Origin: Candidatus Methanoperedens sp.
Lineage (GTDB): Archaea > Halobacteriota > Methanosarcinia > Methanosarcinales > Methanoperedenaceae
Assembly: GCA_027460535.1 (NCBI GenBank)
Contig: JAPZAR010000011.1
Location: 210,001 to 242,000, forward strand
Reading direction: 5' to 3'
DNA length: 32,000 nt
Below, piece by piece: positions 4,193-28,308 of this stretch. Under the pieces are notes generated by a model. That model did no database searches and was not told where the DNA came from. It saw only the letters and a list, made by a program, of their open reading frames with translations. How positions within the stretch are numbered: position 1 is the stretch's first letter; each line of letters opens with the position of its first letter. The position numbers and the translations under genes are program-made.

Positions 4193-5055
4193 ACTTCAGG
4201 GAAAAACTCCTCTCCGGGAAATTTTTGATAACAGCAGAAATAAGTCCGCCAAAGGGCACAGATACAACAGGCTTGCTGAAGGATGCAGATCTGATAAAGG
4301 GATGCATTGATGCCATCAATATCACGGACAACCAGAGGGCAGTGATGCGGATGAGCCCTCTGGCTGCATGCATTATGCTCCGGCAGCAGGGATGTGAAAC
4401 AATAATGCACCTCACATGCAGGGACAGGAACAGGCTTGCATTGCAGTCAGAGCTTCTGGGAGCATATGCACACGGAATAAAGAACATACTGGTAATGTCA
4501 GGAGACCATCCCACGAAAGGGGACCAGGCGGGGGCAAAACCGGTTTACGATATGGATTCCGTGCAGCTTCTGGGATTGATCAGGAAGATGAACCTGGGAT
4601 TTGATTTTTCAGGCAGCAGGCTTGAAGGCGGGACAGATTTTTGCACGGGTGCGGTGACAAATACTGACCTAAATGAAGTTGCGTTTATCAAACTTAAGAA
4701 GAAAATTGAGCTTGGAGCGCATTTCATTCAGACACAGGCCGTCTTCGATATTGACAGGTTTTCTGAATTTATGGATAAGGTGGATGGGTCACGCGGAATA
4801 AAAATAATAGCCGGGGTCATCCCGCTTAGATCGGAAAAGAACGCGCGTTTTCTTAACAATAATATCGCAGGCATAAAAGTTCCCGACGATATAATCAGCC
4901 GGATGAGGGCTGCGAAAGATCCTGAGACCGAAGGAATGGAAATAGCGGCTGATCTGATAAAAGAATTGCGAAGCATGTGCCATGGAGTGCATATAATGCC
5001 TATCCTTACACATGAAAATACGGGAGATATTCTCGAAATGGCGGGTTTAATATGA
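4189..5055 (+). CDS. metF: methylenetetrahydrofolate (or methylene-pterin) reductase MetF family
   Basis: MTHFR-family pattern: FLITAEISPPKGTD, INITDNQRA, HLTCRDRN, NILVMSGDHP, FIQTQAVFD. TTG start at 4189 overlaps the metV stop. The metF stop overlaps the next ATG (5052-5055). Confidence 0.85.
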   Translation: MNFREKLLSGKFLITAEISPPKGTDTTGLLKDADLIKGCIDAINITDNQRAVMRMSPLAACIMLRQQGCETIMHLTCRDRNRLALQSELLGAYAHGIKNILVMSGDHPTKGDQAGAKPVYDMDSVQLLGLIRKMNLGFDFSGSRLEGGTDFCTGAVTNTDLNEVAFIKLKKKIELGAHFIQTQAVFDIDRFSEFMDKVDGSRGIKIIAGVIPLRSEKNARFLNNNIAGIKVPDDIISRMRAAKDPETEGMEIAADLIKELRSMCHGVHIMPILTHENTGDILEMAGLI

Positions 5056-6284: not shown

Positions 6285-7033
6285 AGTTATTCGGTATAAG
6301 GACTCCTTTGATCAGACCGGGGGATAATATGGCAGAAGTCTTGATCAAATCTTTTGCCTCGGAGGGGATCAGGCCGCAGGAAAACGATATAATCGTGCTT
6401 GCAGAATCGGCTGTGGCAAGCGCAGAGGCAAGGATCGTGAGGCTTGAAGATGTTACCCCAAGTAAAAAAGCGATGGAACTATCAAAACTCTATTATAACG
6501 ACCCGAGAAAAATGGAACTAATACTGAGGGAATCCGAGGAGATACTTGGCGGGATACCCGGCGTGGTTGTGACCATTACAAAAGGTGTGCTCTCTCCAAG
6601 CGCGGGCATTGATAATTCCAATGCACCCGAAGGGCATGTGGTTCTGCTGCCTGAAAACCCAAGACAAAGCGCCATTGAGATCAGGGAAAAGCTGATGGAT
6701 GAATACGGGTGCAACATAGCAGTGATTATAGGCGACAGCAGGACACAGCCGCTGCGCCTTGGCTGCGTGGGTATAGCGCTTGGTTGTGCGGGCATTGAGC
6801 CTGTTGAGGATATGAGGGGGCACAAAGACCTATTCGGGAAGCCTCTTTTGATAACCCGGCGCGCCACTGCGGATAATCTGGTCTCTGCGGCGCAGATAAT
6901 CATGGGGGAGGCGGATGAGAGCACCCCTGCGGTTCTTATCAGGGACGCTCCAGCTATATTCATTGAGGGGAGCGTGGAAATACCGCAAATACCGCGCGAG
7001 GAATGCCTGTATTTTGCTTGCTTTGATAAATGA
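6281..7033 (+). CDS. cofE: CofE-family protein (F420-0:gamma-glutamyl ligase-like)
   Basis: About 250 aa, the length and pattern of the CofE/F420 ligase family (RTPLIRPGDN, IIVLAESAVA, GIDNSNAP, IIGDSRTQPLR, AIFIEG). The start was moved to ATG 6281, which overlaps the thiC-like stop as ATGA. The ORF-track start at 6236 lies inside the upstream gene. Confidence 0.7.
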   Translation: MKLFGIRTPLIRPGDNMAEVLIKSFASEGIRPQENDIIVLAESAVASAEARIVRLEDVTPSKKAMELSKLYYNDPRKMELILRESEEILGGIPGVVVTITKGVLSPSAGIDNSNAPEGHVVLLPENPRQSAIEIREKLMDEYGCNIAVIIGDSRTQPLRLGCVGIALGCAGIEPVEDMRGHKDLFGKPLLITRRATADNLVSAAQIIMGEADESTPAVLIRDAPAIFIEGSVEIPQIPREECLYFACFDK

Positions 7034-8963: not shown

Positions 8964-9004
8964 CACCGCAAAGAGCTCGAAGAAGCGCGGCAGTAGTCTT
9001 TTAT
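8964..9004. repeat. 41-bp direct repeat, copy 1 (downstream boundary of the AT-rich cassette)
   Basis: caccgcaaagagcTcgaagaagcgcggcagTagtcttttat matches 11318-11358 at 39 of 41 positions in the same orientation. Confidence 0.9.
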
Positions 9005-9044: not shown

Positions 9045-9299
9045 TCAAGCTGTAGCTTCACTCAAGCTCAATTCGCCCGCTGCAAGCGGGTGAACAAGTA
9101 AGTCGGATTTTTGGAATTTTTTCATAAGTTTGTCAATCTTTTCCGATTCTTTCGGAGAATAATAGGCTTCACCGCATTCATTACAGATATATGCGGTAAT
9201 ATTTTTTATGACCAGTATCTCTTCTCCCACCTTTACAACAAACTCGGTTTTTCCTTTCATTAACTTGCCTTTGCAGAAACTGCATCTATCGGGTTTCAT
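9045..9299 (-). CDS. YgiT/MqsA-N-type zinc-ribbon protein (84 aa)
   Basis: Two Cys pairs, CSFCKG and CNECGE, with the intervening beta-rich segment typical of YgiT-type zinc fingers. No HTH domain follows. AGGAAGGA Shine-Dalgarno-like motif upstream. Confidence 0.7.
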   Translation of the reverse strand: MKPDRCSFCKGKLMKGKTEFVVKVGEEILVIKNITAYICNECGEAYYSPKESEKIDKLMKKFQKSDLLVHPLAAGELSLSEATA

Positions 9300-9343
9300 T
9301 ATTAGTCCTTCCTTATTCTGTTATCAATCCATTTAGTTTTTAT

Positions 9344-10603
9344 TCATAGCAGAATATCTTTGGCAAATTCTCTTACCTGCGACTTATTTTCATCAGGACA
9401 GAAAACGTATAACTTTAAAAGAGGTTCTTGTGAGCCGAAAATAGGAGACTCTTTTTCGATTTCGTGAAGCCCTTCATCGTCAAGAATGAGTATGGGGGTC
9501 TCACCTGACTTAAAAAATTCATAAGAAGATTTGTATAATGTATTCTCGATTTTTTGTAAATGCACTATAATAAAATCTTTATCACAATTGCATTTTTCGG
9601 CCAATTCTTCTTCTAATATCTTGAAGTCTTTGGGTTTCAATCGCATTATTTTCCTTTTTTTCATTGGATTTAATTTTCTAAGGTCTATTTCGAATCCCCT
9701 TTTCAACAGATTTCTATTTTCCAAATCGTTTATTAATTTGAATGAGTTGCTTTCTTTGTTCGATAATATTTTTATGAAAAGCCTGCTGTCATCCAGCGAT
9801 AGGTAGTTCTCCAAAAATTCATCGTTATCAAATTTGAGTAAATCCTCATCTAAAATCCCGTCATGTATGGCTATCTCCACAGCGCGATTTAGCATATTGT
9901 CTGAAATTGCCCTGACATGATGATAATATACTTGGGTATGCATCAAAAACCGAGCCAGACGATAACTTTCAATAGCATCTTGCCCTTTTTTCAAAATCGC
10001 AATCTCTGATCTCTCTCCATCGACCACTTTTTGTATGGTATGAAGAATCCTTTCAAGATCGAATATACCATATGCTACGCCTGTGTGGTAGGAATCTCTT
10101 CTTAAATAATCCAATCTATCCGCATCGATGTTTCCAGAAATAATTTTGCCATTGACGCTATCATTTTTTTCATTAAATAAAGAAAGAATATCATCTTTCA
10201 AGCCACCCAGAATCTTGTCTAAATCCTCATCTTCTTCTATTATCCGGAGTGTAATATCCTCATGGCTGATCTCTTTTTTGTTCACATTCTCAAGAATAGC
10301 TTCAAAATTATGGGATAAAGGTCCATGCCCGACATCATGGAGCAACGCAGCATAGCGAACAATCTCAATCTCATGGTCGCTTAGTCTGAGCTTTTCTGCC
10401 ATTCTGGTTGCTATATGAAGAACTCCAAGCGTATGCTCAAATCTGGAATGGCAGGCGCTTGGATAGACCAGATGAGTGTTTCCCAATTGCTTAATTCGCC
10501 TGAGTCTTTGAACGACGGGTGTACTTAAAAGCTCCAGTTCTTTATGTGTGAGCCCGATAAAACCATAAAGAGGATCCCTGAAAAATTTTTCAAATTCAAG
10601 CAT
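9344..10603 (-). CDS. SAMHD1/dGTPase-type HD-domain phosphohydrolase (COG1078-like, putative dNTP triphosphohydrolase)
   Basis: Complete HD metal and catalytic set: HSRFEHTLGV, LLHDVGHGPLSH, DADRLDYLRRDSYHTGV. 419 aa. The ATG overlaps the upstream gene's stop (TAATG). Very AT-rich coding sequence. Confidence 0.85.
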   Translation of the reverse strand: MLEFEKFFRDPLYGFIGLTHKELELLSTPVVQRLRRIKQLGNTHLVYPSACHSRFEHTLGVLHIATRMAEKLRLSDHEIEIVRYAALLHDVGHGPLSHNFEAILENVNKKEISHEDITLRIIEEDEDLDKILGGLKDDILSLFNEKNDSVNGKIISGNIDADRLDYLRRDSYHTGVAYGIFDLERILHTIQKVVDGERSEIAILKKGQDAIESYRLARFLMHTQVYYHHVRAISDNMLNRAVEIAIHDGILDEDLLKFDNDEFLENYLSLDDSRLFIKILSNKESNSFKLINDLENRNLLKRGFEIDLRKLNPMKKRKIMRLKPKDFKILEEELAEKCNCDKDFIIVHLQKIENTLYKSSYEFFKSGETPILILDDEGLHEIEKESPIFGSQEPLLKLYVFCPDENKSQVREFAKDILL

Positions 10604-11190
10604 TACTCAGCCTGACAAAGATTCAATTGCTTTAAAAGTTCGACCGCAGTATCAATTTGTGACTGGTCCAGTTTCCAGCCAAAAGATTCGGCTGTTAATG
10701 TTATTTCTTCAGGTGTCATAGGCTTACCCTGCTCTGAAAGAATGTAATTTACTTTTGCAGCCCACGATAGAATATTTACATCAAGGTTCGCGGTTTTTTT
10801 GCAGATCTTGACTAAATTTACAATTTTATTATATTCATCCGTGTGTTCTTTCTTAATATGTTCGGTTATCTCATTGCCGTCTCTGGAAATTGTATAGCAG
10901 TACCTTTTCCAGTCCTCAGAGACTGTAAATCCGGTTGTTTCGCGGGTTTCCACTTCTTCTTTCACAAAATCGAGGTATGTAAGCTCGTGGATGGTGCTGG
11001 AGACTTCGGAACTATAGGGACCGTAGTAATGCGGCTTATATTTTACATCAACAAGTCCAAATAAAGATTCAAAATAGACCAGTTTTTGAATCGCAGTTCG
11101 CCCTGGAATACAATCTCCTGCGGCTTTAATGGTTATTAATATCGCATCCAAAAGTTCCAATTTAATCCCTCTGATAGCCTCTTGTAACAT
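10603..11190 (-). CDS. Panacea/DUF4065 (SocA-like) domain protein, putative antitoxin
   Basis: Signature AIQKLVYFESLFG followed by HYYGPYSSEV matches the DUF4065/Panacea core. The start was set at internal ATG 11190, which has TATA-like boxes directly upstream. The ORF-track extension to 11367 reads through the promoter and the direct repeat. Confidence 0.7.
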   Translation of the reverse strand: MLQEAIRGIKLELLDAILITIKAAGDCIPGRTAIQKLVYFESLFGLVDVKYKPHYYGPYSSEVSSTIHELTYLDFVKEEVETRETTGFTVSEDWKRYCYTISRDGNEITEHIKKEHTDEYNKIVNLVKICKKTANLDVNILSWAAKVNYILSEQGKPMTPEEITLTAESFGWKLDQSQIDTAVELLKQLNLCQAE

Positions 11191-11207
11191 ATATTTAATT
11201 TTTATAG

Positions 11208-11215
11208 TATTTAAA
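11208..11215 (-). promoter_or_regulatory. TATA-box-like element (TTTAAATA) for the cassette operon, implying a leaderless transcript
   Basis: Minus-strand sequence is catTTTAAATActATAAAAAttaaatatATG. The TATA octamer lies 18-25 nt upstream of ATG 11190. Confidence 0.45.
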
Positions 11216-11317
11216 TGCTGATGAGTTGTTTTAGGGGGGGAGAGGGCATAAACTCTAACGAAGCGGGGCGAAAGTATTCTGATAACACAAACAGGAGCAG
11301 ATACAGTAATTAAAATC

Positions 11318-11358
11318 CACCGCAAAGAGCGCGAAGAAGCGCGGCAGCAGTCTTTTAT
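11318..11358. repeat. 41-bp direct repeat, copy 2 (upstream boundary of the AT-rich cassette)
   Basis: caccgcaaagagcGcgaagaagcgcggcagCagtcttttat; 39 of 41 identical to 8964-9004, 2354 bp away, in direct orientation. Confidence 0.9.
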
Positions 11359-11540
11359 AAAAAGCAACGAACTGATGCGAACTTGTAAGAACTCGGCGGT
11401 GCGATGTGAGCGCGCGGCGCCTTTCGCCTTTTGAGAATAAACGACGACCGCATCAAAGTTATTATTACAGAAATGATAATTTTAGGACTTTTACTTGTGG
11501 TTTTATAGCGTATCGATATAAAACAATAACGTCCCTTCCC

Positions 11541-11897
11541 TCAATGTCCCGCTCCTCCCGCTTCCGCGTGCACCGCCGCATACCTCTCCGTGATCAGCGC
11601 GCGCTTGAGCCTGAACATCACCTTCTGCTTATCGAAATTATACTGTTCTGCCAGCGTCCTGATGAGCCTCTTCTTTGATGCGCCTTTCAAGCTCATCTCA
11701 GACATGATACCGTCAACGAACTCCTTGCCCCGGTCAGCTTCCTTCTTAGCCTCGGCTTTTATTTCAGGCGAAGGCGCTTCAGCTTCTACAGCTTTGGGCG
11801 CCGCCTTTTGCACATCGGCCGTCCCCGGCGTCGCTGCATTCTCAGTTGGCTTTTCTGTTTTGACTGCTTTCTTTACTACTTCCGCCATGCCCATCAC
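11541..11897 (-). CDS. small K/A/E-rich protein (118 aa), last gene of the hdr/fdh-like operon
   Basis: The ATG overlaps the stop of the upstream FdhA-like gene (ATGA at 11894-11897). Low-complexity K/A/E/P N-terminal half, then a predicted helical C-terminal half (FVDGIMSEMSLKGASKKRLIRTLAEQYNFDKQKVMFRLKRALITERY). No family recognised. Confidence 0.55.
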   Translation of the reverse strand: MMGMAEVVKKAVKTEKPTENAATPGTADVQKAAPKAVEAEAPSPEIKAEAKKEADRGKEFVDGIMSEMSLKGASKKRLIRTLAEQYNFDKQKVMFRLKRALITERYAAVHAEAGGAGH

Positions 11898-21898: not shown

Positions 21899-22917
21899 TC
21901 GCCAGCCTCCAGTTTTGATAAACCCGCAGATATCTGGTCATTCTTGATGGGTTCATCCAATTGTCGAGCAAGGAACACGCTCAGGTCGACAACATCAAGA
22001 TCATATTTCTTCACGGCATCCTTTTCATTCTTAAGGCAATTAAAGTGCGCAAGGCATTTTGGACAGGTTGTGATCAACGTTTTTGCACCTGTCGCCTCAG
22101 CTTCATCCATACGGGCTATTCGCAGGGCTTTTGTCTGCTCATTGCAATTCATGAAACTGCTCACCCCGCAACAAAGGGCATTCTCCTTTGAATGATCCAT
22201 CTCTTTTATTTTCGCACCGTTCGCGGAAAGAGCATTTCGGGGCGCATCATACACGCCCATATGTCTCCCAAGCCTGCATGAGTCGTGGTAGGTCACTTCC
22301 GAGTTTATCTTCATTCCAAGCTTGTCCAGGAGTTCGGCTATATGGATCACCCTGATACCAAGATCGTAATCCTTCGATAAAGTGCGGTAGCATTCGGCAC
22401 AGCTTGTGATAAGGGTCTCGATACCACTATCTTTCAGATATCTGGTATTGTGATTTTTAAGCCTGTCAAAAACATCTTTTTTCCCCTGCCATAGCACATC
22501 ATGACCGCAGCACTTCATCTGCATGATCCGGGGTTCTATGCCTATTTTTCCAAGAAGCTTTAGCGATGAGGTGGTTATCTCCCCAAAATCGGTTTTGACA
22601 TCGTGAAGGAATAAACCCAGCGAATCCACACATCCGGGGAAGTAACCATATTTTGAATCGGATTTGTTTTCAGGTTTGTTCCCATCAAGTTTGGAACTCA
22701 ATTCCGCAAATTCCGTGAAAACCCCGAGGTGTGCTACCTCAAGGGGCTGCTTCCCTTCCCTTTCCTCCTTTATGAAACTTAAGAAATCCACCTGCTGTGG
22801 ACACTCCTGCGGGCATAATCCGCATGTGAGGCATGTCCAGATGTCCTTTGTTTCATGCCCGTAGACATTGGAATTATAAATAGAACTGCGCGGAGATGTT
22901 TTTGAGACTCGGCGCAT
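21895..22917 (-). CDS. HdrD/GlcF-like Fe-S protein with two CCG domains; the N-terminus apparently continues upstream of the first ATG (possible frameshift)
   Basis: CLTCGLCPQECP ferredoxin motif plus CCG motifs (MKCCGHD, ALCCGVS, TCPKC). The partner ferredoxin motif CYQCGKCTSICP is encoded in-frame at 22918-22953, upstream of the ATG. See findings. Confidence 0.75.
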   Translation of the reverse strand: MRRVSKTSPRSSIYNSNVYGHETKDIWTCLTCGLCPQECPQQVDFLSFIKEEREGKQPLEVAHLGVFTEFAELSSKLDGNKPENKSDSKYGYFPGCVDSLGLFLHDVKTDFGEITTSSLKLLGKIGIEPRIMQMKCCGHDVLWQGKKDVFDRLKNHNTRYLKDSGIETLITSCAECYRTLSKDYDLGIRVIHIAELLDKLGMKINSEVTYHDSCRLGRHMGVYDAPRNALSANGAKIKEMDHSKENALCCGVSSFMNCNEQTKALRIARMDEAEATGAKTLITTCPKCLAHFNCLKNEKDAVKKYDLDVVDLSVFLARQLDEPIKNDQISAGLSKLEAGE

Positions 22918-23060
22918 GGGGCATATGGATGTGCATTTGCCGCACTGATAACAGACTTGGACGTTACTCGTTTGTACCCTCCAGCATTTCTATGGTTTAT
23001 AACTTTCTTAATGATTAGAAGATATAATTGGTTTTAAAGATTTCGATTTTTAACGATGCA

Positions 23061-23100
23061 GAGCATCATTATTAATAATGGAGCATAATTATTAATAATG
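23061..23100. promoter_or_regulatory. tandem 20-bp repeat, each unit carrying an AT-rich palindrome; operator-like site upstream of the hdr operon
   Basis: gagcatcattattaataatg followed by gagcataattattaataatg (19 of 20 identical). Unit 1 contains the perfect 14-bp palindrome cattattaataatg (23067-23080). Unit 2 contains the 12-bp core attattaataat. It lies about 75-115 nt upstream of the candidate hdr operon start. Confidence 0.45.
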
Positions 23101-23270
23101 TTACTTTGATATGGCTCCACGGTCTCCTATCGCAATTATAATGTTGTTCAATTCCTGACTCGTGGGTTCTCTGTTGTTTTCAAGCTCAAAGACATCTATT
23201 ATTGCACTGTAAGTGCAGTGAAGTCTGTCCGCCGTTTTTCTTTTGACATATCTTGTCATATTATTATAAT

Positions 23271-23786
23271 CTATTTTTCTTCCTCTGCCCGGATAATACA
23301 GAGGTTATTTTCCGCTTTTGCATGAGGGTCTACCAGACCAAGCAGCCTTTCGTCTTCAAGGTTGATCCTTTCATCTGTCTTGCTTTTGAACCCGTATTTG
23401 CCGAAATCTGTCAGTGTGGGTCTTCTTTTAATATAATGCCCTCTCTTGAACTCAAAGGAGAATGGAAGCGACCGTTCGCATGCTGCCCTCACATCTTCCA
23501 CAACGCTTTCCTTCTCGACCTCCACAAGGATCTCTCCAACTATGATATGCAATTCCAAAGCGCAATCTCCGACATGGATGACCTTCCTGTCAGGATGGTT
23601 CACGTCTGCACCAGTACCGGGTCCGCATGTGACTTTTCTGGGCAGATTTTTCCCATTGATGAGCATCCTGATTACACCTTTTGTCTTATCGATCTCGTTC
23701 AAAACTTTTTCCGCAGTCTCTGGTTGTAACAGTCTTTGCGGAAATACCCTTACCTGGATGGGTTTGTCTGGAGTAGTTTTTTCCAT
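23271..23786 (-). CDS. mcrD: methyl-coenzyme M reductase operon protein D (McrD), stand-alone
   Basis: IQVRVFPQRLLQPETAEKVLNEI, NLPRKVTCGPGTGADVNHPDRKVI, LPFSFEFKRGHYIKRRPTLTDFGKYG. Collinear with the McrD family along its full length (171 aa). Confidence 0.85.
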   Translation of the reverse strand: MEKTTPDKPIQVRVFPQRLLQPETAEKVLNEIDKTKGVIRMLINGKNLPRKVTCGPGTGADVNHPDRKVIHVGDCALELHIIVGEILVEVEKESVVEDVRAACERSLPFSFEFKRGHYIKRRPTLTDFGKYGFKSKTDERINLEDERLLGLVDPHAKAENNLCIIRAEEEK

Positions 23787-24010
23787 CTAATTCCTTCTTG
23801 TCCAAATAAACGATGTCATGAATATTAAGTGTTTTGGTTCGTACTTATACGAATAAAATATATAATCGTGATAGTTATCACCTTGGAGACGTGATTTTGA
23901 GCCGGGAATCTTTATATCTATCTACCTTGTAATAAACAGGTTAATCGGAGGATGGTACTATTCGTGGATACGATGACGACCGAAAAACAAGAAGTTTTAT
24001 TTTAATCGCG

Positions 24011-26436: not shown

Positions 26437-27186
26437 TTAAACGGCCAAAAAACTTTGCAGCATTCTGGCATCTTCAGGTGGAAAGCCTGAATAATATTTA
26501 CTGAAATATCCAAAAACTTCAATAGACTCTCCCGTCAATCTTCTGATCCGCTCTGCCCAAAGGCTTATATCACTTTTCCTATCTTTTTCCACCTCTCCGA
26601 GCATCCCGTTTATTGTTTTCCTATCCCCCTCCCATCTTATGTAAGTGAAATCAGCAGTCAAAGTATCTATCCTGGGCATCGATGAGGCGTCTATCCAGAC
26701 CAATGCCACTCCATGATCCCTGAGCAAATCATAAAATTTTTCTTCAAGCCATTTTTTATTTCTCACCTCCAAAGCATAGCGGTATCCTGCAGGCAGAATG
26801 GACAGGAACTCCTTCAGGATATCGAATTGATCGGGTTTGAATCCCGCCGGGAACTGCATAAGCATCGGCCCGAGTTTATCTTCCAGCAAAGACATGTGTT
26901 CGATGAAGACCTCCATTTCTCTTTCGCAATCCTTCAGCATTTTATCATGTGTTATTACCCTGGGGAATTTTGCCGAGAACGTAAAATCCTTTGGTGTCTG
27001 CATATTCCATTTCTTGACCGTTTCCGCGTAGGGTATTCGATAAAACGTGCTGTCTATCTCGACTGTATTAAAAACCTTCGCATATTCATGAAGGAGGTCT
27101 CCAGCACTGGTATTCTCAGGATAGAAACTGCCAGTCCAGAAATCGTAGCTCCAGCCCATGGTACCTATATGCAACTTTTCTTTCAT
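26437..27186 (-). CDS. DUF72 (YecE-like) family protein
   Basis: N-terminal IGTMGWSYDFWTGSFYP, FNTVEIDSTFYRIP, QFPAGF, ALEVRNKKW and YIRWEG are characteristic DUF72 blocks. Confidence 0.85.
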   Translation of the reverse strand: MKEKLHIGTMGWSYDFWTGSFYPENTSAGDLLHEYAKVFNTVEIDSTFYRIPYAETVKKWNMQTPKDFTFSAKFPRVITHDKMLKDCEREMEVFIEHMSLLEDKLGPMLMQFPAGFKPDQFDILKEFLSILPAGYRYALEVRNKKWLEEKFYDLLRDHGVALVWIDASSMPRIDTLTADFTYIRWEGDRKTINGMLGEVEKDRKSDISLWAERIRRLTGESIEVFGYFSKYYSGFPPEDARMLQSFLAV

Positions 27187-27594
27187 CTATTTCATTATAA
27201 GAGTTTGTTTTACCTCTTTAATCTTATCTCTCCCGCTTCTTTTCCTGCGGGCTTTTGATCTGCATCAAAGGAAAGCAATGAAAGTGTGATTTCTATTACT
27301 TATGTCACTGAAGTCAGGATCAGAAATAAGATTTTTGAATAATTCATAGAAAGATATAAATCTACGAATATACTATATTGTGATGGAGATCTTGAGGCTG
27401 GTACATGAAAAAGTTAAAGTATTATTTCCCACCACAAATACATATAGATCAAAGAACAGGATTGATACTTGGATTGTTGCTCATCCTTCTTGCTCTTTTG
27501 CTGGGTTCTGCGAACGCTTGAATAAATTTGAATTCTCACAGGGTGTATTATCTATACCAACATATTTATTTTAGAATAAGCGAATAAGTAACTA

Positions 27595-27948
27595 ATGTCT
27601 CTCATCAATAAGGTTTCAAAATTTTTTAAGAAAAAAGACCGGACGTATGCTCCGGGAAAAGAAGACAAAGTCAAAATCCATAATTATGTGGGAAAGTTCG
27701 TGGTCCAAAACGGGGCTGAAATAGGTGAAAGTGTTGCTGTTGAAAGGGGAAGGCTCATAATAAAGAAATCGGATAGTTATTCTTCCATCCCGCTTGAAAA
27801 AATCCAGACCAACGCAGAAAAAATTGTCGTGGGTGATTTTGACATGGAAGAATCCCGGAAGTTTGGAAAAGAGTGGTTTGAAAAAAAGGATACCCTGAAA
27901 TTTGATGATAAGGGAATGCTTATTTTAAACAAACCCGAGCCTCAATAA
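27595..27948 (+). CDS. hypothetical protein (117 aa)
   Basis: Clean ORF with ATG start and plausible composition, 12 nt upstream of pth2 on the same strand. No family recognised. Confidence 0.5.
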   Translation: MSLINKVSKFFKKKDRTYAPGKEDKVKIHNYVGKFVVQNGAEIGESVAVERGRLIIKKSDSYSSIPLEKIQTNAEKIVVGDFDMEESRKFGKEWFEKKDTLKFDDKGMLILNKPEPQ

Positions 27949-27960
27949 TTCTTACTGGAC

Positions 27961-28308
27961 ATGCCAGAATACAAACAGTGCATCGTTGTGCGGGATGATC
28001 TCAAGCTCTCAAAAGGCAAACTTGCTGTCCAGGTAGCACATGCCGCTGTCTCAGCTTCTGATTTTGCAGGAAGGGATGTCCGAGAGGCATGGAAGGAAGG
28101 GGGACAAAAAAAAGTCGTATTGAGAGTAAACACGCTGCGGGAACTTTTTGAATTAAAGGAGATAGCTAGAAAGCATGGTCTGTCTACGGCTTTGATCGAG
28201 GATGCGGGACTTACAGAAGTGCCCCCTGGAACGGTCACGGTATTGGGCATCGGTCCTGCGGAAGCCGGCGAACTTGATAAGATAACAGGGCATTTGAAGC
28301 TTCTCTGA
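27961..28308 (+). CDS. pth2: archaeal/eukaryotic-type peptidyl-tRNA hydrolase Pth2
   Basis: [56 protein letters not shown]. Full-length match to the Pth2 pattern (115 aa). Confidence 0.9.

Follow-up and report, generated by a model that had tools for sequence, protein, structure and literature searches.

A SAMHD1-type HD phosphohydrolase gene coupled to a divergent Panacea/DarG-like partner: a conserved two-gene module and candidate toxin-antitoxin or antiviral system in archaea and bacteria

Depletion of nucleotides by SAMHD1-like enzymes is an antiviral strategy common to animals and bacteria, and how cells silence such enzymes is a current question. One recent answer is Clover, in which a defence deoxynucleoside triphosphatase (dNTPase), CloA, is kept in check by a partner gene, CloB (PMC12265719). 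Antitoxins of the Panacea (DUF4065) type block unrelated toxins by direct binding and have a functionally important GP-containing strand (Kurata et al. 2022, PMC8832971), and DUF4065 proteins are homologous to the C-terminal domain (CTD) of DarG, which binds and inhibits DarT (PMC13621843, 2026). Here we analyse a stretch of 32,000 nucleotides (nt) from Candidatus Methanoperedens sp. (contig JAPZAR010000011.1, positions 210,001 to 242,000), referred to below as the window, in which a gene of the Panacea/DarG-CTD superfamily (gene i) is directly followed by a gene for a SAMHD1-type HD enzyme (gene ii). No description of this i-HD pair was found in the literature searched, and it is probably a new toxin-antitoxin (TA) or antiviral module, a variant of Panacea-type TA systems joined to nucleotide-depletion defence. 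A preliminary description of the window had proposed an archaeal operon of three genes, the third encoding a YgiT zinc ribbon (gene iii).

Three open reading frames (ORFs) lie on the minus strand of the window within positions 9045-11367, two of which make up the pair:

10603..11160, minus strand: gene i, 185 amino acids (aa), winged helix plus helical part, 'YwgA'-type family
9344..10603, minus strand: gene ii, 419 aa, HD plus HD_assoc_2, of the COG1078 kind

The two genes show a bicistronic, overlapping arrangement, sharing one nt in TAATG (TAA at 10605-10603, ATG at 10603-10601), and 44 nt separate the stop of gene ii from the start of gene iii. The preliminary description had correctly recorded the three ORFs, the TAATG overlap and the 44-nt gap; its gene i, however, ran from 10603 to 11190 and comprised 195 aa. 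We place the start at a TTG at 11160 because in two relatives (L097 and L098 in our numbering of loci) a stop codon directly follows the ATG equivalent to 11190, because gene i homologues begin at the position matching the TTG, and because the public gene call likewise gives 185 aa. The ATG at 11190 is probably unused.

A survey centred on gene i, taking one genome per species, yielded 80 loci with a gene i homologue. An HD gene adjoins it on the same strand in about 75 of these, frequently overlapping it, and no third gene is conserved beside the pair. Gene i precedes the HD gene in archaea and follows it in bacteria. The archaeal pairs come from Methanoperedens, Methanosarcinaceae, Methanomicrobiales, Methanocella, Bathyarchaeia and Nitrosopumilaceae, and the bacterial ones from more than 10 phyla, including Planctomycetota, Verrucomicrobiota, Chloroflexota, Bacillota and Desulfobacterota; the module is therefore not archaeal-specific, as it had first been presented. 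Despite the inverted order, gene i and the HD gene co-diverge, their pairwise identities correlating at r = 0.93 (2,926 comparisons).

Approached from the enzyme, an HD-centred metagenome scan found gene i beside all of the 15 closest HDs, while most remoter HD+HD_assoc_2 proteins were solo. In a neighbour-joining tree of 140 HDs, 81 of 83 partnered HDs formed one clade with no solo HD within it; 44 solo HDs lay outside, as did the two other partnered HDs (L167 and L181), which stand beside weak gene-i-like ORFs. The archaeal branch of this tree roughly tracks taxonomy. Neither the best 120 HD homologues nor the best 150 gene i representatives included an i-HD fusion protein. Together, the results establish i-HD as a tightly coupled, conserved module across unrelated genomes. 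The preliminary description had asked whether the linkage recurs, and the outcome favours that description over the contrary picture of a housekeeping HD orthologue with conserved synteny and no such linkage elsewhere.

Weak gene-i-like ORFs were also noted beside HDs outside the clade (L181, 4262-4792; L170, 1351-1833; L167, 1519-2064). They match gene i at E values from 1e-16 to 2e-6 and have no Pfam match; because of them, the partnership with gene i may reach more divergent lineages.

Gene ii is a full-length HD phosphohydrolase of the SAMHD1/EF1143 type, in agreement with the earlier reading of a SAMHD1/dGTPase-type HD enzyme with an intact catalytic set. Pfam assigned HD (PF01966, 6e-16) and HD_assoc_2 (PF19276, 4e-24), both above cut-off. 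Among solved proteins it matched Aquifex O67745 (2HEK; 3e-47), the Enterococcus dNTPase EF1143 (2.7e-46) and SAMHD1 (~1e-25), with BT4208, a fungal SAMHD1 and human SAMHD1 as further relatives by sequence. Across 23 homologues H52, R54, H57, H89, D90, H98, H114 and E115 are invariant, and so are D160, D162, D165, Y166, R169 and D170. In alignment they coincide with the catalytic residues of SAMHD1 and EF1143, the H-E dyad among them, and the protein carries the H...HD...D metal ligands of HD enzymes as well as the D-x-D-x-x-D-Y-x-x-R-D motif. Its AlphaFold2 (AF2) model (predicted local distance difference test score, pLDDT, 90.2) was aligned by Foldseek over the full length, C-terminal lobe included, to SAMHD1, EF1143, BT4208 and O67745 at template modelling (TM) scores of 0.75-0.81 (targets 9MR6, 4LRL/3IRH, 2Q14, 2HEK and human SAMHD1). 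Judged by these relatives, the predicted effector is most likely a triphosphohydrolase of (deoxy)nucleoside triphosphates ((d)NTPs).

We also considered a Dgt-type anti-phage dGTPase as an identity for gene ii and rejected it, since NF041026 scored 15 bits where its cut-off is 400. With the PADLOC dGTPase model the match is confined to the HD motif region, about 75 residues, and there are weak matches to Cas3 HD domains. A segment reading QRLRRIKQLG, with residues of SAMHD1 allosteric site 1, is conserved; the equivalent of SAMHD1 D137 is S27 in gene ii of the window and D in the family consensus.

The assignment of gene i to Panacea/DUF4065 in the preliminary description held at the level of the superfamily and failed at that of the Pfam profile. 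PF13274 (DUF4065/SocA_Panacea) matched neither gene i nor any of 33 homologues at a threshold as loose as E<=10, so that we do not file gene i as a Pfam Panacea member; likewise, of the 133 gene i homologues found, none of the 120 among the matches listed had a precomputed Pfam domain. More sensitive comparisons were positive. DarG models match gene i (NCBIfam, 1.4e-6; PADLOC, 3.3e-8) through their C-terminal part only, at about DarG positions 180-327, and a profile of the gene i family searched against the Protein Data Bank (PDB) returned 7YK3_B, the DarG CTD. The AF2 model of gene i (pLDDT 90.8) had the same structure as its top Foldseek match (TM 0.63/0.65, full length, about 14% identity), which was also the only strong match in the PDB; PadR/MarR-type regulators came next. 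Aligned by hhalign to two PF13274-positive proteins (51-55 bits), the gene i profile scored 96.6% and 97.4%, with E values of 5e-10 and 1.5e-11 over about 96 columns.

The motif Y56-G-P-Y-S60 of gene i is invariant in the family, G57 and P58 included, and reads GPY where Panacea has GPV. In alignments it coincides with a YGPYS in both Panacea proteins and DarG, and on this basis it is the predicted counterpart of the GP-containing strand of Panacea antitoxins. There is no macrodomain and no DarT neighbour, so that gene i departs from the full DarG architecture and matches the fold of its CTD. Gene i is, by profile-profile and fold comparison, a divergent member of the Panacea (DUF4065)/DarG-CTD superfamily, a distinct sister family outside the Pfam model whose relationship is visible at superfamily level only.

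The gene i family is small: a search of 1.84e9 proteins yielded 2,402 representatives at E<=1e-3, and 290 at the stricter E<=1e-30, all about 180 aa long and none fused. A PHROGs search gave nothing informative, and a BFVD fold search with gene i returned only uncharacterised Sulfolobus virus proteins. The best of these, A8TKI0 of Sulfolobus spindle-shaped virus 4 and A0A2H4RBN9 of Sulfolobus ellipsoid virus 1, matched at TM 0.49/0.58 and E 5e-5; to see virus-encoded antitoxin mimics in them is speculation. The JGI label of the family is 'YwgA', a COG name that probably comes from B. subtilis ywgA, a positional neighbour of the HD gene ywfO. If so, the pair has been visible yet uncharacterised for decades.

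Decay of the pair runs mostly in one direction. Of about 77 loci that could be evaluated, 11 combine a full-length gene i with an HD gene that is broken up, left as an N- or C-terminal stump, or missing (L034, L042, L043, L046, L059-L062, L064, L067 and L073). Loss or stumps of the HD gene recur in Nitrosopumilaceae (L059, L060, L062, L067) and Syntrophomonas (L042, L064), and of two syntenic Chloroflexota loci L045 has the HD gene and L046 does not. L098, outside these 11, is a further case with gene i kept and the HD gene gone. The predicted effector is lost and its putative neutraliser kept, as toxin-antitoxin logic predicts. The sole reverse case is L097, a Logan contig (SRR29366205) from an automatic assembly, in which a 1-nt insertion at about position 1860 frameshifts gene i next to an undamaged, 95%-identical HD gene; the insertion reflects either a mistake of the assembly or a variant that is naturally 'antitoxin-less'.

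The pair is an accessory, mobile, AT-rich unit. Its guanine-plus-cytosine (GC) content is below that of its flanks in 66 of 76 loci (mean, 6 points). In four loci of close Methanoperedens relatives (L001, L002, L003 and L013) the window's upstream neighbours, a 118-aa gene and FdhB/molybdopterin genes, are kept, and 0.9-3.8 kb of variable DNA lies between them and the pair; the downstream flank is never conserved among these relatives. In Methanoperedens BLZ2 the orthologous pair occupies a different site, between aromatic-amino-acid genes and ftsZ.

The variable DNA of L001 (1260-4694 and 7191-8075) encodes a reverse transcriptase of 509 aa, an HD+OB-fold protein of 319 aa, an unknown protein of 272 aa and a Fic/DOC protein. 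The reverse transcriptase and the HD-OB protein lie on one side of the pair and the Fic protein on the other; possibly this DNA forms a small island of defence or mobile-element genes that occupies the same chromosomal site.

A second Methanoperedens lineage (L007, L009-L011) has the pair within a tight same-strand operon that runs DUF499 ATPase, DUF7680, gene i, HD, DUF1156 methylase and SNF2 helicase. Two bacteria unrelated to each other (L056 and L068) likewise have DUF499/DUF7680/DUF1156/SNF2-type partner genes around the pair. Defence operons that contain it are found in three independent lineages, represented by:

L009, 1467-10554: pair within a Type-1 BR operon
L056, 168-9356: pair within a Type-1 BR operon
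L068, 1-5576: pair within a Type-1 BR operon

Operons of this DUF499-DUF1156 methylase-helicase kind were named 'Type-1 BR' in a 2026 survey of BREX-related systems (PMC12839542), the main text of which makes no mention of an HD or dNTPase insert. Insertion of the pair into such operons in Methanoperedens and two bacteria suggests a role as auxiliary effector. Elsewhere its neighbours include Type I restriction-modification (R-M) genes, an OLD/AbiEii-like ATPase, Schlafen-type and Fic proteins, and a reverse transcriptase.

Two observations on the provenance of individual loci belong here. L010 (JAUQWS010000043.1), which is labelled as an Ignavibacteria bacterium, has essentially the gene content and coordinates of the Methanoperedens contig L009; it is probably a mis-binned archaeal contig and not a case of inter-domain transfer. 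In IMG/VR the pair occurs on five viral contigs, all with the bacterial gene order, and these may be host flanks.

In the window itself the pair is part of a low-GC cassette (37% GC, compared with 47% in the rest of the window), which contains or is bordered by the following further features:

11318..11358, no strand: upstream copy of a 41-nt direct repeat, at the edge of the low-GC cassette
11191..11215, minus strand: TATA-like AT-rich stretch TTTAAATACTATAAAAATTAAATAT, read from the sequence, upstream of gene i
9302..9340, minus strand: 3' stump of a DUF4258 toxin gene, its last ~12 codons and stop
9045..9299, minus strand: gene iii, 84 aa, YgiT/MqsA-N-type CxxC...CxxC zinc ribbon
8964..9004, no strand: downstream copy of the 41-nt direct repeat, 40 nt past the gene iii stop

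The stretch TTTAAATACTATAAAAATTAAATAT is kept in L097 and L098 and, with a GAGGG located 8 nt ahead of the TTG start of gene i, likely constitutes the predicted archaeal promoter and ribosome-binding region of the operon. The two repeat copies are identical at 39 of 41 positions, with 0 matches expected from shuffled sequence. In L001, the closest relative, the repeat flanks the i-HD pair on both sides (about 4800-4860 and 6920-7000) and is longer. Neither the repeat nor the intergenic regions had an Rfam match or a significant RNA fold, the window contains no tRNA gene that could act as an integration site, and there is no integrase near the repeats, which resemble a scar left by recombination or integration on the downstream side of the 118-aa gene.

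Gene iii is a YgiT zinc ribbon, as the preliminary description had it: TIGR03831 scored 53.4 bits (cut-off 20.2; 2e-14), and Pfam MqsA_antitoxin scored 30.4 bits (cut-off 30) over profile positions 2-63 only, the 84-aa protein being without the C-terminal helix-turn-helix (HTH) of full MqsA. Its place in the operon required revision. Homologues of gene iii, which are 84-aa YgiT fingers of Methanosarcinales, normally lie 1-3 nt downstream of a DUF4258 gene of about 105 aa, and DUF4258 is a BECR-fold TA toxin family of the RelE/ParE superfamily for which DUF4258-MqsA fusions are known (PMC11980606). The spacer before gene iii had been read as containing a Shine-Dalgarno-like AGGAAGGA; positions 9302..9340 instead align with the 3' ends of intact DUF4258 genes found just upstream of gene iii homologues in L098, L099, L101 and L102, and represent the last ~12 codons of a deleted toxin gene. 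Because the 44-nt spacer matches a DUF4258 3' end, gene iii is the orphan antitoxin of a degraded DUF4258-YgiT module and not a third component of the HD module. The three ORFs are thus a two-gene module and a relic rather than a three-gene operon.

The sister locus L098 (GCA_040961635.1, JBFOMZ010010459.1; 1572-2900) has decayed in mirror image to the window. It has a 79%-identical gene i, the TAATG and the first eight codons of the HD gene (MLEFEKFF), after which come a deletion, an intact DUF4258 gene and a 90%-identical YgiT gene; past the latter lies an 86-nt fragment of the 118-aa gene (window 11576-11661). In L001 the repeats stand directly around the i-HD pair, and there is no DUF4258-YgiT module. 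The contexts of four further gene iii homologues contained no intact i-HD-DUF4258-YgiT ancestor. In the simplest history, a DUF4258-YgiT module was inserted downstream of the HD gene in the repeat-bounded cassette, and one lineage then lost the RelE-like toxin and another the HD gene. L098, where a Panacea-like gene now adjoins a RelE-like toxin, may be a snapshot of antitoxin partner swapping. Gene iii also carries a caution: a gene that looks like part of an operon may be what is left of a degraded module next door.

Further low-GC stretches with short ORFs (GC 0.37-0.42, compared with ~0.48) occur in the window at 1500-2500, 22500-24000 and 26500-28000 and may be additional acquired segments.

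How might the pair work? At roughly even chances, we would read it as a nucleotide-depleting effector restrained by a Panacea-like partner that binds it directly, in a type II TA or abortive-infection-like module. In favour of this reading stand the linkage, the clade of partnered HDs, the antitoxin kinship of gene i, the complete catalytic set of gene ii, the accessory and mobile character of the pair, its defence contexts, the one-sided decay and the precedent of Clover. The functional unit would be the two translationally coupled genes. The HD enzyme would most likely cleave dNTPs, and possibly NTPs, to nucleoside and triphosphate, and the gene i protein would most likely bind the enzyme and hold it inactive, a role proposed because the DarG CTD acts in this way on DarT and PanA on its toxins. 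Gene i may also repress the operon through its winged helix. If the partner were lost, titrated or degraded, for example upon virus infection, the HD enzyme would deplete nucleotides, and replication or growth would stop. Where it is inserted into BREX-related or restriction-modification operons, as in some genomes, the module could provide them with an additional effector.

In the main rival reading, which we consider less likely, the same genes serve a non-toxic purpose: the HD enzyme would sanitise or balance (d)NTP pools with no addiction or defence role, and gene i would be an activating or targeting subunit, or simply a transcription factor that controls the operon through its winged helix. 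HDs of the COG1078 type are widespread and retained even in JCVI-syn3.0, and relatives of this HD family are kept in minimal genomes and usually seen as housekeeping nucleotide-pool enzymes (PMC4993169). Many pair loci lie among housekeeping genes (DnaE, PheT, AroB', FtsZ) or other ordinary genes such as glycosidases, with DnaE adjoining the pair in two bacteria. The rough agreement of the archaeal HD branch with taxonomy, the PadR/MarR-type regulators that rank next to the DarG CTD among gene i folds, and the label 'YwgA', which leads to the neighbouring ywfO and ywgA of B. subtilis, fit such a role. The partner, however, is homologous to antitoxin domains and not to known enzyme activators; the pair is rare and patchy as well as AT-rich, and its site differs between close relatives; it resides in the defence operons of three independent lineages; gene i survives HD loss in about 12 genomes, which is unexpected for a subunit without another role; and the solo HDs of this family function with no partner of the kind. 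The setting among ordinary genes nevertheless weighs against a restrained toxic effector, and several other points do so too. Only about 10% of immediate neighbours are defence-like by family counts (n=147), so that the defence association, with many loci flanked by ordinary genes, is real but partial. Searches by tblastn with archaeal gene i (plasmids and phages) and bacterial gene i (plasmids) returned no match, and PADLOC has no model for the pair. Identity between gene ii and EF1143 is about 30% in the Foldseek structural alignment, the predicted activity follows from homology, and the HD tree is without bootstrap values. The asymmetry of decay is suggestive and not significant, because the loci were found through gene i, because the HD gene is a 2.3-fold larger mutational target, and because the HD-centred sample had only 19 in-clade loci; the frameshifted L097, if real, would weigh against strong HD toxicity.

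A quite improbable alternative keeps the defence role and changes the substrate, with the HD protein acting on nucleic acids or on signalling or modified nucleotides and gene i serving as a nucleic-acid sensor or specificity subunit. HD domains also serve as nucleases, and here belong the weak Cas3 HD matches of gene ii, the winged helix of gene i and the presence of the pair within DNA-modification-based BR systems; SAMHD1 binds nucleic acids (PMC7854603), and a title cited in PMC13621843 describes the DarG CTD as a mimic of single-stranded DNA. The entire SAMHD1/EF1143 triphosphohydrolase motif set is nevertheless invariant, from the H-E dyad to D..D..DY..RD, and the full-length fold matches dNTPases and not nucleases. 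The originally proposed triplet, with three components and the YgiT zinc ribbon as sensor, adaptor or second regulator of the HD toxin, is essentially refuted by the comparative data. Gene iii does share the strand of the HD gene, 44 nt downstream and within the repeat-bounded cassette, and 13 contigs of the same population encode the identical protein, all arranged as in the window; co-transcription is plausible. Yet it stands beside gene i homologues in 0 of 80 loci and is missing from the 94%-identical L001, its family pairs with DUF4258 toxins of which the spacer is a stump, and the sister genome L098 keeps gene i and DUF4258-YgiT with the HD gene deleted.

Beyond the restrained nucleotide-depleting effector, we tentatively consider a broader possibility, which on balance is doubtful: the gene i family and its HD clade would be an unrecognised, ancient branch of Panacea-type TA and defence systems, spanning archaea and bacteria, with a dNTPase toxin held by binding that acts both in stand-alone abortive infection and as a backup effector of BREX-related or R-M systems. 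Such a branch would amount to SAMHD1 restriction in prokaryotic form, secured by a protein 'safety catch', and L098 would capture Panacea-type antitoxins in the act of acquiring new toxin partners. Gene i extends the Panacea/DarG-CTD antitoxin superfamily to a sister family undetected by Pfam. The pair also provides a candidate accessory effector of BREX-related systems and a candidate defence or TA system for archaea, among which few have been characterised; its carriers include the methane-oxidising Methanoperedens and the ammonia-oxidising Nitrosopumilus.

Set against known systems, the pair shares its outline with PanA/PanT (PMC8832971): a small protein of antitoxin type, built on a winged-helix core and bearing a conserved GP strand, is encoded beside, and translationally coupled with, an unrelated enzyme, in either gene order, as an accessory and mobile unit. 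Panacea systems have a conserved arrangement of two genes, the putative toxin gene being less than 100 nt away, and an HD gene is adjacent to gene i in about 75 of the 80 loci given above. In contrast to PanA, gene i has GPY in place of GPV and its family falls below the Pfam model; it is locked to a single partner clade whereas Panacea is promiscuous; and its partner is a SAMHD1-type HD protein of 420 aa, a phosphohydrolase toxin being unmentioned in the main text of that study. Because the survey used the Pfam hidden Markov model, it would have missed the gene i family. The DarG CTD (PDB 7YK3), which binds and blocks its cognate toxin, is the best match of gene i in sequence and structure over the full length; unlike DarG, gene i is without a macrodomain, is partnered by a protein other than the ADP-ribosyltransferase DarT, and has an identity of only about 14%.

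Type-1 BR systems (PMC12839542) resemble the locus in that Methanoperedens and two bacteria carry paralogues or orthologues of the pair within operons of this type; they differ in that none of their genes is in the window and the pair is not a core component. With the DUF4258-MqsA/YgiT TA modules (PMC11980606) the window shares gene iii, a typical antitoxin whose homologues directly follow DUF4258 genes, and differs from them in the reduction of the toxin gene to about 12 codons and the missing MqsA HTH. Gene ii has the fold and catalytic residues of the SAMHD1/EF1143 dNTP triphosphohydrolases, and Clover (PMC12265719) sets a precedent for a dNTPase effector that a partner gene keeps in check. 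Clover's regulator is a nucleotidyltransferase that makes an inhibitory nucleotide, whereas the regulator predicted here is a protein-binding, antitoxin-like domain. The i-HD module thereby offers a different and testable answer to how SAMHD1-like enzymes may be silenced, namely by a dedicated antitoxin-like protein partner.

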